From Patescibacteria group bacterium UBA5272 (GTDB lineage Bacteria > Patescibacteriota > Minisyncoccia > Phycocordibacterales > UBA5272): DNA of 64,000 nt. This document shows, piece by piece, positions 14,912 through 22,606 of the stretch (position 1 is the stretch's first letter; each line of letters starts with the position of its first letter). The notes beneath the pieces are model-generated. The model made no database searches, was not told the DNA's origin, and saw only the letters and a list, made by a program, of their open reading frames with translations. Both the position numbers and the translations under genes were made by a program. The stretch lies in the NCBI GenBank assembly GCA_002408565.1, contig DHTA01000005.1, positions 108,049-172,048 of the forward strand, given 5' to 3'.

Positions 14912-15445
14912 ATGAGAAAAGATGTTTTAACAATCGTTGGGGAAGGGTTGTTTGGCGCAGACTGGATTCCAATTATGGAAAACCAAAAGTTTTCTTTTCG
15001 AAAAGAGTTTAAGACTTCATTGTCTAGAAAGTATAATGAAGAACAAAGACTTCCGTCCAAAAAGAAATACAAAGTACACATTTTGGCTGGAAATGAAATT
15101 GAAAAGAAACAGGAGCGTACAACCGAAAATCTAAAAAGATTAGCCGAAGAAAAGTATGGCTTTAAATCTTTTGAAACATTGAAAGGTGAAGGAGTCTTTT
15201 TGTGTAGACTCAAAATCTCAAATCAAAAGATGAGGGAGATGGGCTTTGATTATATTTCTATGCTGCATAAACCTTATGAAGATGACTATGGAGATGAGGG
15301 ATTTATAATCTTTGACGATTCCTTGCAGGATAATATTTATTTATATTATGCTGAAATGAATGATTATTGGGCAAAAAATGGGGGATTTATTTTCTTGGAA
15401 GAAATTCCTGTCCCTCAATCGAAAAAAGATAAAAAACCTTTGTAA
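14912..15445 (+). CDS. Hypothetical protein (177 aa)
   Basis: Intact ORF between two terminators. No family recognised. The antisense ORF 14755-15213 is judged spurious. Confidence 0.45.
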   Translation: MRKDVLTIVGEGLFGADWIPIMENQKFSFRKEFKTSLSRKYNEEQRLPSKKKYKVHILAGNEIEKKQERTTENLKRLAEEKYGFKSFETLKGEGVFLCRLKISNQKMREMGFDYISMLHKPYEDDYGDEGFIIFDDSLQDNIYLYYAEMNDYWAKNGGFIFLEEIPVPQSKKDKKPL

Positions 15446-19424: not shown

Positions 19425-19498
19425 TGCCCATTCGTCTAATGGTAGGACAACAGTTTCTGGCACTGTTAATTGAGGTTCGACTCCTTGATGGGCAGCCA
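19425..19498 (+). tRNA. tRNA-Gln (anticodon CUG)
   Basis: Acceptor UGCCCAU/AUGGGCA with U1:A72 (a GlnRS identity feature). Anticodon stem ACAGU/ACUGU with loop UUCUGGC. T-loop GGUUCGACUCC. A TATAAT box lies at 19407-19412. Confidence 0.85.
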
Positions 19499-19546: not shown

Positions 19547-20854
19547 ATGAAAGAATTTGTGCCAAAGGCTAATATAGATAAAGACGGAGATAGAAAAAAT
19601 AAAGAGAGTTTAGAGGATCAAAAAATAGACTTAAAAGTTTTTATTCGAGAGATATCCAAAGAGATATCTGAGTGTGAACCAGATTCTTTAGAATTTTTTA
19701 AATTAAAAAACTCTTTTATAAAAGCCGCGCCTATATTTAGGGAAAGTATAAAAGAATATATAGAATTATCCAAAGAATATCTTTTTATCATGGATTCTGA
19801 AAAAGAAGATTATTTTAGATTGGCCGATAAATTAGACTTAATGGAAGAAGAAGATAGGGAGATATTTTTTCAGGTCTTTAGACGAGGACAGGTGTATGGG
19901 CAATTAATTGATAATATTTTAGAAAAAAAAGAATTTTATCTAAATCAAAATGAAATAGAAAGAGATAAAGAAAAGGAAGAAATAAAAGAAGCTAAAGAAG
20001 AGCTTTTAGAATTTATTTTAGAAAGATTTGGATTTTCTGAAATAGAAGTAAAAAAGCTTATCAAAAGTTGGCTCACTATAGAGGATGATGAAATTGCTCG
20101 TTGGTATGTTGCTAGAAATTTACAAAATATAAATTTTCTAGAAAATCGTGAAGTTGGCTCAGCAAAATATTTATTTGATAATTTTGGTATTAGAGGTTTC
20201 GGGAGATATGAAATTCATGAACTCAATAAACAATATAGAGAAAGAGAAAATATGGGACCATACGGAATATATTATCAGGCAGTTATGGATTGGAATGGTT
20301 CTTTTATAAACTCAGATAATTCCGAAGACTTAGGTAGAAAAATAGAAAAACAAGGTTTTCTTATGAGAATAATAGAAGCAGATGGAAAAATCGATTCAGC
20401 TAAGAGATTACTCTCTTTAAGAGACAAATATGAACAGAAAATAAAATTTATGTATGTGCACGCTCATGGCAATACAGATGTTATAGGTCTCGGAGATGAC
20501 AAGATGTCCAGCAATAGATTGTTTGAACAGAAAGACTTAAAAGGCAAAGGAGTTCAGAGAGTCAAAGATTTATTTGAAGATGATGCGGAAGTTATCTTAT
20601 CTAGTTGTCTAACCGGTGTTAAAGGTGGTCTCGCAGAAGAAATTGCAAATACTTATGGGGTGAAAGTTATAGCTGCCGATAAACCAACAGTATGTAGACC
20701 TATTTCTGTAGATATTGAAAAGACAAAAGATGGGAATAATTTAGAATTTGATATTATCTTTAATACTGTAGACCTAGAAGTTGCAGAGGAGAGAGAAGAT
20801 AAAAAAAGATCTGATTTATTAGGCACTGTTATTTATAACCCAAAAGGTAGATAA
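19547..20854 (+). CDS. Acidic hypothetical protein with a C-terminal caspase-fold-like (His...Cys) domain
   Basis: FMYVHAHGNTDVIGLGDD ... EVILSSCLTGVKGG resembles the His-Gly and hydrophobic-strand-Ser-Cys dyad of CHAT/C80/caspase-like peptidases. The N-terminal roughly 250 aa are Glu/Lys-rich and helical. Confidence 0.45.
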   Translation: MKEFVPKANIDKDGDRKNKESLEDQKIDLKVFIREISKEISECEPDSLEFFKLKNSFIKAAPIFRESIKEYIELSKEYLFIMDSEKEDYFRLADKLDLMEEEDREIFFQVFRRGQVYGQLIDNILEKKEFYLNQNEIERDKEKEEIKEAKEELLEFILERFGFSEIEVKKLIKSWLTIEDDEIARWYVARNLQNINFLENREVGSAKYLFDNFGIRGFGRYEIHELNKQYRERENMGPYGIYYQAVMDWNGSFINSDNSEDLGRKIEKQGFLMRIIEADGKIDSAKRLLSLRDKYEQKIKFMYVHAHGNTDVIGLGDDKMSSNRLFEQKDLKGKGVQRVKDLFEDDAEVILSSCLTGVKGGLAEEIANTYGVKVIAADKPTVCRPISVDIEKTKDGNNLEFDIIFNTVDLEVAEEREDKKRSDLLGTVIYNPKGR

Positions 20855-20873: not shown

Positions 20874-21602
20874 ATGAAAAACTTAAAGAAAAAATACATA
20901 CTTATAACACTTGCAATATTCTTATTGTTTGTTGCTGGTGTCTTTTATATATTTTATAATATACAAGAAAAAAAATCTGATACAACTAGCTCAGAATCTG
21001 TTAGTGTTTGGGATGCAGAAACAGCATCTTTCAAAAAATATGCTTCTTATTCTGAAATGGAAGAAGAAATGGAAAGTGAGAAACGAATAGATCTTGAAGA
21101 ATATAATAGGGCCATAAAAGGAACTGTCGTAGAGCAGATTCAAAATATAGAAATACCCTCATATGATAGTGATGAGCGCCTCTTCCGGTTAGAAGATGGA
21201 AAGATAGAAGTAAGATCTATGTCTCCAATGAAAGACGACTTATCTAAATATGCTTTACTCTGGTCTGCCTCTTTGGAAAAAAACCTAAGATCTTTTACTG
21301 TGGCTGATTTTAATAATGACGGATTGGAAGACGTTGCTCATATTATTGGATATACTGGTGGGGGTAGCGGGTATTTTTACTATCTCAATATTTTTATAAA
21401 TGAACAAGGTAAATTAAAATATCTTACTCAGCGTGAATTGGAAGATAGGATTATCATTAAGGGTCTGAAATATAGTGCTGGAGATTTTTTGCTAGATGTT
21501 ATTGCTCACGGAGAAGGGGAAGATTTTTTGGGATATTGTTGTCCAAATGTGCCTAAAACACTCACGTTTCAATTGCAAGACAATAAGTTGATAGAAAAAT
21601 AA
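20874..21602 (+). CDS. Membrane-anchored hypothetical protein with an FG-GAP-like Ca-binding motif
   Basis: N-terminal TM helix. DFNNDGLEDVAHIIGY fits the DxNxDGxxD FG-GAP/VCBS-like pattern. Confidence 0.45.
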   Translation: MKNLKKKYILITLAIFLLFVAGVFYIFYNIQEKKSDTTSSESVSVWDAETASFKKYASYSEMEEEMESEKRIDLEEYNRAIKGTVVEQIQNIEIPSYDSDERLFRLEDGKIEVRSMSPMKDDLSKYALLWSASLEKNLRSFTVADFNNDGLEDVAHIIGYTGGGSGYFYYLNIFINEQGKLKYLTQRELEDRIIIKGLKYSAGDFLLDVIAHGEGEDFLGYCCPNVPKTLTFQLQDNKLIEK

Positions 21603-21622: not shown

Positions 21623-22606
21623 CTAATCCCTCACTATCACCGTAGTACCTAAAGGTGCCCATTCGTATAATTTTTGAGCGTCATCTAAAACTAAATTCAC
21701 ACAACCGTGAGACCACTGTTTACCAAATTTATCATGCCAATAAGCGCCGTGAATGGCTCCACCTTGATAAGTGAAATACATTGTCCAAGGGACTCCTGGA
21801 AGATCATAGTATTGATCTGAGATACCAGGTAAGGGTCCTTGCATATAACGAGTAGGAGTTTTTTCAAAAATATGAAAAGTGCCACGAGGGGTCGGTAAAT
21901 CATCTAGACCAGTAGAAACTAAAATTTCCATAAATAATTTTTCACCATCATAAGCGTAAAGTTTTTGTTCGCTTCGGTCTATAATTATTTTTTTCTCAGT
22001 AAGATTTTCTATTTTAGCGTCTTTCGTATATCGAGTTTTATAGCTATCAATTTCTTCTAAAAATTCGCTTGAAACATACCACTCGCTACCAGTTCTATCT
22101 GAATAACGCACCCATTCATCAAAGATTATGTGATACCATTTAATGCCATCACTTTCCGTGATTTCTCCGTCAGTTTTCAAAACCATACCATTACGCAAAG
22201 TTGTGGTTACGGGACAGTTGATGCTTGGGCAAACTCTAGCTCTCACGCAGACACCACTAAAATGAGCATCACAACTATCTATTACTTTGACATATTTTCC
22301 TTCAGAAGTGATTACGGAAGCTTTTTCAGGAATAGGAGAAGTTGTGGTGGAGGTGGTAGCGGAAATAGAGCTGCTGGTCGCCAATTCTTGGCTGTCGAGT
22401 ATAGGTTCTGTAACTTGTATAATTTCTGGATTTTGATAATAAGAGTCATTTATCTCACTATTTGAAGAAAAACTGTTTTTTGTTAAAGCGTTTGTGACTA
22501 AATAAACCAAAAGAAAAGCCAAAAAAATGGCAATAGAAATAAGTAAAACTTTTTTAATATTTGAATTAAATATTTTGTTGTAGAGTTTATTTTCTCCTTT
22601 TTTCAT
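21623..22606 (-). CDS. L,D-transpeptidase (YkuD-fold) with N-terminal TM and Ser/Thr-rich linker
   Basis: Catalytic region HGAYWHDKFGKQWSHGCVNL matches the YkuD HG...SHGC motif. N-terminal TM and an S/T-rich stretch. Confidence 0.7.
   Translation of the reverse strand: MKKGENKLYNKIFNSNIKKVLLISIAIFLAFLLVYLVTNALTKNSFSSNSEINDSYYQNPEIIQVTEPILDSQELATSSSISATTSTTTSPIPEKASVITSEGKYVKVIDSCDAHFSGVCVRARVCPSINCPVTTTLRNGMVLKTDGEITESDGIKWYHIIFDEWVRYSDRTGSEWYVSSEFLEEIDSYKTRYTKDAKIENLTEKKIIIDRSEQKLYAYDGEKLFMEILVSTGLDDLPTPRGTFHIFEKTPTRYMQGPLPGISDQYYDLPGVPWTMYFTYQGGAIHGAYWHDKFGKQWSHGCVNLVLDDAQKLYEWAPLGTTVIVRD

Follow-up and report, generated by a model that had tools for sequence, protein, structure and literature searches.

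The genomes of Patescibacteria are very small, and a large proportion of their genes is without an assigned function. One such gene lies at positions 19547..20854 (plus strand) of a 64,000-nucleotide stretch of low GC content (~31%) from Patescibacteria group bacterium UBA5272 (GenBank assembly GCA_002408565.1, contig DHTA01000005.1, positions 108,049 to 172,048), which is referred to here as the window. What does this gene encode, and how does its product relate to enzymes that are already known? A first-pass annotation of the DNA had proposed a caspase-like His/Cys dyad and had read the product as a cytoplasmic regulated protease or effector. The predicted fold and the invariant dyad described below support this proposal, and we infer a catalytic activity, a regulatory role of the N-terminal half and an intracellular site of action. 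We are confident that the C-terminal half, as modelled, has a caspase-type fold with an invariant His/Cys pair. With a probability of about 70%, the protein is a soluble, probably cytoplasmic, regulated cysteine endopeptidase of MEROPS clan CD, in which a helical domain serves for docking or regulation.

Predicted fold and position of the dyad

The open reading frame (ORF) is complete and encodes 435 amino acids plus the stop codon; its start codon is the first ATG downstream of an in-frame stop, and its extent is backed by the ORF list, the homologs and the structural model. As had been stated in the first-pass annotation, the protein is acidic (net charge about -19, pI 4.98) and carries two motifs in its C-terminal part, FMYVHAHGNTD at residues 301-311 and EVILSSCLTGV at residues 348-358. 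The spacing between His307 and Cys354 is 47 residues and not the approximately 55 residues that had been given.

An AlphaFold2 model, which was computed on a 30-sequence full-length alignment of homologs, reached a predicted TM-score (pTM) of 0.82 and a mean predicted local distance difference test (pLDDT) value of 80.5. Residues 29-231 are modelled as all-helical and residues 239-430 as an α/β domain. In clan CD enzymes, the central sheet has the order 2-1-3-4-5-6, a small β-section lies between β3 and α3, and the dyad is formed by a His at the C-terminal end of β3 and a Cys at that of β4 (PMC4357240). The order of the model elements defines a predicted caspase/hemoglobinase-fold (clan CD) core at residues 236-410 (20252..20776, plus strand), which follows the α/β/α sandwich order β1-α1-β2-α2-β3-(small β-section)-α3-β4-α4-β5-β6. 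The first part comprises β1 (239-245), α1 (252-268), β2 (272-278), α2 (281-295) and β3 (299-305), the small β-section consists of short strands at 312-314 and 325-327, and the second part contains α3 (328-342), β4 (343-351), α4 (362-370), β5 (373-377) and a hairpin (387-392/399-404). His307-Gly308 (20465..20470, plus strand; codons CAT GGC), with the predicted catalytic His, is located on loop L3 directly after β3. Ser353-Cys354 (20603..20608, plus strand; codons AGT TGT), with the predicted nucleophile, is located on loop L4 directly after β4 and is followed by a conserved x-T-G357. Both assignments rest on conservation and on the model.

In a Foldseek comparison with 350,542 PDB chains, all of the top 50 matches were clan CD proteins, including caspases, CED-3, Dronc, Tce1, SAVED-CHAT and separase. 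In a fold comparison, the best score was obtained for the DUF4347 domain of Tce1 (9qpe_G; 13.2, 148 residues, root-mean-square deviation (rmsd) 2.8), followed by SAVED-CHAT (12.4), RgpB (10.5), Kgp (10.3), C11 peptidases (9.6), legumain (9.3), caspases-4 and -9 (9.2), TPR-CHAT (9.2), GPI8 (8.6), metacaspase-4 (8.5), the cysteine protease domain (CPD) of MARTX (8.0) and separase (7.8). The first entry from outside clan CD, a short-chain dehydrogenase/reductase (SDR), appeared at rank 21. Both comparisons give a caspase fold and not a different one.

A large family with an invariant His/Cys pair

A first homolog search returned 47 full-length homologs, all of them unnamed or labelled 'hypothetical'; the organism names that were present are Patescibacteria and Falkowbacteria. 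In the full-length alignment of 30 sequences, His307-Gly308-Asn309 and Ser352-Ser353-Cys354 are invariant, and this extends to two relatives of 583-586 amino acids with approximately 30% identity. A profile built on the C-terminal 250 residues was used in an exhaustive HMMER search, which detected 1,611 cluster representatives at E<=1e-3, 1,145 at E<=1e-10 and 358 at E<=1e-30, all counted at 50% identity. The match is nearly always located C-terminally in a protein of 400-700 amino acids, and no annotation was found on any of the family members. This is a large, previously unannotated family, whose named members come from metagenome-assembled genomes (MAGs) of Patescibacteria. A scan of GTDB reached the close subfamily only and returned six loci, four with Patescibacteria-lineage labels, one with a Saccharibacteria label and one binned as Woesearchaeota; the last is a short 2.2-kb contig that is possibly mis-binned. 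For the wider family, neither a look-up of the clusters nor a third homolog search yielded organism names.

Conservation was counted over 149 family sequences that are non-redundant at 60% identity. Gly240, Glu277, His307 and Cys354 are invariant (149/149), and Asp248 (147/149), Arg220 (146/149), Gly357 (145/149), Gly308 (143/149) and Gln229 (142/149) are nearly so. Further conserved positions are Ser353 (139/149), Arg274 (137/149) and Asp330 (128/149). The dyad layout that had been read from the two motifs is borne out by the predicted fold, by the positions of both residues and by their invariance in the homolog alignment. In the HAHG stretch of the first motif, H307-G308 proved to be conserved, whereas the first His, His305, is not and is replaced by Gly in 111 of the 149 sequences. 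Because the protein has 47 full-length homologs, an invariant dyad and just three His and three Cys residues in total, the motif pair is beyond chance. The conservation of the dyad in divergent sequences, together with that of Gly308, Ser353 and Gly357, is the pattern expected of catalysis and not of a scaffold. It is therefore very improbable that the protein is an inactive scaffold with a caspase-like fold, comparable to the caspase-like domain of Raptor or to c-FLIP.

Two members of the family carry additional sequences at their C-termini. P0189 (725 amino acids) has an extension of ~230 residues (~495-725) that weakly resembles the AbiEii nucleotidyltransferase toxin (E 0.0048 in Pfam and 0.007 in PADLOC), and P0073 has a 128-residue extension without any match.

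Domain organisation and proposed mechanism

The core is preceded by a helical pre-domain (residues 186-235; 20102..20251, plus strand) with helices at 181-201, 205-213 and 223-231, which is conserved family-wide. It contains the motif LE..(P)G....L...FGI..F.RY....L..QY, in which L209, G214, I215, F218, R220, Y221, L226 and Q229 are conserved at 91-99%, and the profile match begins here in nearly every family member. Upstream, a Glu/Lys-rich α-helical repeat-like region (residues 26-185; 19622..20101, plus strand) is subfamily-specific and constitutes a candidate docking or regulatory module. The N-terminal tail (residues 1-25; 19547..19621, plus strand) is hydrophilic, of low confidence (pLDDT <50) and probably disordered, and a signal peptide was not seen. 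At the C-terminal end (residues 411-435; 20777..20851, plus strand), an acidic low-confidence linker (pLDDT <50 at 412-417) is followed by a short strand (427-430), around which GTVIY is conserved within the subfamily.

The N-terminal half had been described as Glu/Lys-rich, helical and free of transmembrane segments. Its composition (12.7% Lys and 18% Glu in the N-terminal 189 residues) and the helical model agree with the first two statements. As for the third, a 19-residue hydrophobic segment of transmembrane or signal-peptide strength was found in none of 209 family homologs, a scan that covered the homologs but not the window protein, whose N-terminus reads as hydrophilic.

In the proposed mechanism, Cys354 would be the nucleophile that attacks the scissile peptide bond, with His307 as general base/acid. 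Asp248, which is located in a D-W-N-G sequence of loop L1 three residues past β1 (20288..20290, plus strand), is a candidate S1-specificity or His-orienting residue. It may line the S1 pocket or orient the His possibly together with Asp330 and with Glu277, which terminates β2 in the motif R274-I-I-E277 (20375..20377, plus strand). The S1-specificity position of L1 is Arg87 in caspase-7, and an Asp in the Arg/Lys-specific enzymes RgpB (Asp163), MALT1 (Asp365) and TbMCA2 (Asp95) (PMC4357240). Because Asp248 occupies the L1 position of the Asp in gingipain R, MALT1 and metacaspases, cleavage after a basic P1 residue (Arg/Lys) serves as a working prediction by analogy, for which we would accept slightly less than even odds. 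The pre-domain helices would pack on the protease core. By analogy to separase and TPR-CHAT, a docking or regulatory role is proposed for the helical-repeat region, which may bind a substrate or a regulator and possibly holds the protease in an inactive state. The gene stands alone, without an obligatory partner gene.

Relation to known clan CD families

Four observations weigh against a clan CD protease with a regulatory N-terminal domain. First, the window protein misses the Pfam threshold for DUF4347 (PF14252; 15.8 vs 24.6 bits, E 0.012). Second, neither single-sequence nor profile searches (alignments A2 and A4) found a solved relative among all PDB chains, and thus a residue-level equivalence to Tce1 is not obtainable by sequence. 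Third, hhalign of A4 versus a caspase-3 sequence pairs His307 with the catalytic His121 at a probability of 0.4%, which is not significant. Finally, the N-terminal domain gives generic helical-repeat matches only.

The sub-threshold DUF4347 match spans residues 279-381 and thereby includes both motifs. NCBIfam returned no significant match for the window protein (best E 0.2, far under cut-off), and PADLOC and PHROGs returned none. When 36 divergent members were compared with Pfam, none reached a curated family, and one matched DUF4347 at E 1.8e-5. In the majority branch, which is recognizable by 'KISFAIIGGHG...SCSTG', weak matches to DUF4347 (two of eight members, E about 0.05) and to Peptidase_C80 (one of eight, E 0.0053) were observed. 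At the level of sequence, the sole signals are to clan CD families, all of them below or near threshold.

Tce1 (PA0256), the closest structural relative, is a cargo effector of the Pseudomonas aeruginosa H3 type VI secretion system (T6SS). Its C-terminal DUF4347 domain has ten strands around four helices, its His186/Cys240 pair aligns with the dyad of the TcdB CPD, and its paralog Tce2 shows a toxicity in yeast that is abolished by mutating Cys115 (PMC13323088). The domain described here likewise has ten strands and four helices and is structurally similar to the solved DUF4347 domain. In contrast, neither phmmer nor profile searches matched it to the Tce1 sequence, and it is found in Patescibacteria and not in Pseudomonas. 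Moreover, the protein has a longer and different helical N-terminal half and the family-specific FGI..F.RY....L..QY pre-domain, and at the 30 non-redundant loci that were compared no neighbour recurs that would indicate a T6SS or Hcp association. Within clan CD, the domain falls nearest to the DUF4347/C80-like corner, and we do not file it as a DUF4347 member because the Pfam threshold was missed and a T6SS context is lacking.

The resemblance to Tce1 and to C80 peptidases would also fit an exported effector or toxin that acts on the host of an episymbiotic Patescibacterium, similar to Tce1/Tce2, the CPDs of MARTX and TcdB, or the type III secretion system effector OspB. C80 enzymes are activated by eukaryotic inositol hexakisphosphate (InsP6), and this activator has no obvious counterpart here. 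In addition, signal peptides and transmembrane segments are absent from the 209 homologs, the protein is not part of a large toxin, and no secretion-system, Hcp/VgrG, immunity or chaperone-adaptor gene recurs alongside it at the 30 loci. We therefore regard an exported effector as unlikely. The same distance to the C80 family (the CPDs of MARTX, TcdA and TcdB) appears in the domain itself, which is not embedded in a large toxin and for which the window protein has no match to Pfam C80 (PF11713) at E<=1. Acidic residues are conserved near the predicted active site, and thus neither InsP6 activation nor the Leu specificity of the C80 type is indicated.

The other clan CD families are likewise related to the protein by fold. 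CHAT (PF12770) has no Pfam match in the window protein or in the family members tested. Unlike the CHAT proteases SAVED-CHAT (8tl0) and TPR-CHAT/Csx29 (7zoq, 7y83), the protein has no PADLOC match and no neighbours of the SAVED, CRISPR or CBASS (cyclic oligonucleotide-based antiphage signaling system) type, and no linkage to defence partners (SAVED, TPR-CRISPR or others) was found at the 30 loci. A Pfam match to the caspase/metacaspase family C14 (PF00656), a QACxG-type Cys motif and a p20/p10 organisation are all absent. There is no sequence-level membership in the Arg/Lys-specific groups (gingipains C25, clostripain-like C11, metacaspases/paracaspase C14B), and neither a gingipain/C11-type signal peptide nor such a prodomain is present. 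Separase (C50) is about 3-4 times larger, and the bacterial protein has no sequence similarity to it. The likeness between the helical region of separase and the N-terminal half is generic, with a high rmsd and on par with importins and HEAT proteins. Nevertheless, separase and TPR-CHAT have the layout of a helical scaffold and a C-terminal caspase-fold domain in common with the protein.

As the caspase fold also occurs in GPI8 and asparaginyl ligases, the protein could be a Cys enzyme with a non-hydrolytic reaction, such as transpeptidation, ligation or another acyl transfer. This appears quite improbable, because the top-scoring relatives (Tce1, CHAT, gingipains, C11) are described as proteases and conserved partner genes of a modification pathway were not found.

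Genomic context

The local gene order is rplQ-rplM-rpsI, a 177-amino acid ORF, grpE, dnaK, dnaJ, tRNA-Gln(CTG), the caspase-fold gene, the gene for a 242-amino acid protein and a YkuD gene on the opposite strand. The order dnaJ-tRNA-Gln-gene-YkuD is common to the window, to locus L007, which encodes a 60% identical ortholog, and to L009, a Candidatus Elulimicrobiales MAG that is the closest named genome sharing the window gene order. This stable synteny in the window lineage points to vertical inheritance. Distant homologs are found in unrelated contexts. Each of the loci has one copy of the gene, and most of the family loci are housekeeping regions (dnaK operon, groESL, nusA-infB, secA, mur/fts genes).

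For a survey of neighbours, ORFs were called in every locus, among them 24 newly added metagenome loci from the divergent branch, and 12 annotated contexts were inspected. The 239 neighbours at the 30 non-redundant loci fell into 209 clusters, and no partner recurred beyond the window's own lineage. Based on these contexts and on the clustering, a conserved operon partner was rejected. An apparent signal of DnaK in five loci dissolved, because one of these loci proved to have an MreB protein and another a weak match to the actin/HSP70 superfamily instead.

These contexts bear on a possible role in immunity. CHAT and caspase-like proteases act in type III CRISPR, CBASS and gasdermin systems, and the protein might be a single-gene anti-phage or abortive-infection protease, in which the helical domain would sense infection and free the caspase-like protease for cleaving host or phage proteins. 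The CHAT-like fold and the mobile-element genes beside some loci (L001, L012) are in line with this reading. We nevertheless consider it doubtful, because the loci are mostly of the housekeeping type with a vertical-type synteny and a single copy each, no sensor or partner gene is conserved, and neither the window protein nor nine family members match PADLOC, save for the weak AbiEii tail. A known defence or phage family was also rejected, as there was no PADLOC or PHROGs match and a pattern scan of IMG/VR found no relatives on viral contigs.

Some of the loci contain further genes of note. In L001 (5702-9266), which encodes a 54% identical homolog, a 70-amino acid XRE-type helix-turn-helix (HTH) gene lies 60 bp upstream, and this pairing recurs on the short contigs L002 and L003, each with an identical protein. 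A 506-amino acid large serine recombinase also precedes the gene in L001 and abuts a tRNA-Ser; the HTH gene and the serine recombinase at a tRNA-Ser suggest that the gene of this genome is carried on an integrative element. The tRNA-Gln(CTG) lies beside the caspase-fold gene in the window (19425-19498), in L007 (5892-5963), L009 (5351-5424), L013 (5289-5360) and L012 (7186-7257). In L013 the neighbours are otherwise unrelated (pyrG, a LOG-like gene). In L012 the tRNA-Gln lies on the downstream side of the gene, and after it comes what appears to be an integrated element, with a 187-amino acid ORF, a LexA-fused C5 methyltransferase (restriction-modification) and a serine recombinase. The adjacency to tRNA-Gln could reflect a conserved micro-synteny or a tRNA-linked variable spot.

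The first-pass annotation had also placed the gene next to an envelope module. A gene for a 242-amino acid, N-terminally anchored protein indeed adjoins it (20874-21602, plus strand), with weak FG-GAP (E 0.005) and XAC2610-related (5.8e-06) signals below the cut-offs. However, this gene is missing from L007 and L009, no homolog of it was found in 42 related loci, and the similar-sized downstream gene in L013 is not its homolog. As it is confined to the window among the loci compared, it looks like a lineage-specific insertion, and the link to an envelope module was rejected. The YkuD L,D-transpeptidase gene (21623-22606, minus strand; Pfam E 8e-24) runs convergently to the protease gene and keeps its position in L007 and L009; its product has an N-terminal anchor and a weak SH3_3 signal that stays below threshold. 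The 177-amino acid ORF between rpsI and grpE (14912-15445, plus strand) has no significant Pfam match and appears genome-specific, because the S9-grpE spacers of L007 and L009 are too short for it. In L007 (3267-4518), dnaK and dnaJ are separated by a gene of the N-formylglutamate amidohydrolase (FGase) family and by a 150-amino acid ORF, neither of which is present in the window.

A divergent 559-amino acid member in L031 (2880-6702) is located directly 3' of groES-groEL in the same orientation, and Pfam confirmed both chaperonin genes (Cpn10 and Cpn60). Adjacency to a chaperone operon (dnaK operon; groESL) thus occurs twice independently among about 28 lineages, a post hoc observation that serves as a lead only. 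The whole window contains no CIRCE operator with <=3 mismatches, and scans for promoters and terminators performed no better than on shuffled sequences. Membership in a heat-shock regulon is therefore unsupported.

Implications

Caspase-fold proteases operate as switches in cell death, cohesin cleavage, toxin activation and CRISPR/CBASS immunity. The family described here is a previously unannotated, family-level variant of the clan CD cysteine peptidases; the fold class itself is an established one, and the analysis brought up nothing unexpected in mechanistic terms. A more far-reaching reading, which we put forward only tentatively, is that of a large lineage-enriched clan CD family, which comprises no fewer than 1,600 clusters at 50% identity and has its own helical pre-domain and an acidic D248/E277/D330 signature. 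Like separase or CHAT, such an enzyme could be a regulated protease, here with a central place in the physiology of Patescibacteria. Within this reading, a stress/proteostasis processing enzyme is a possibility, because the gene lies just downstream of grpE-dnaK-dnaJ in the window lineage and of groES-groEL in an unrelated member; a role in the interaction between symbiont and host is another.

For the more probable clan CD endopeptidase, the family gains a predicted fold, a dyad (Cys354/His307) and a testable chemistry, for which a basic P1 residue is the working prediction. A profile built from alignments A2/A4 would name more than 1,000 'hypothetical proteins', and the newly solved DUF4347/Tce1 fold is extended past T6SS effectors. 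For now, these results matter for annotation and for generating hypotheses rather than for mechanism. Its size, its uniform architecture and the absence of annotation make this family a worthwhile and directly testable target in Patescibacteria.
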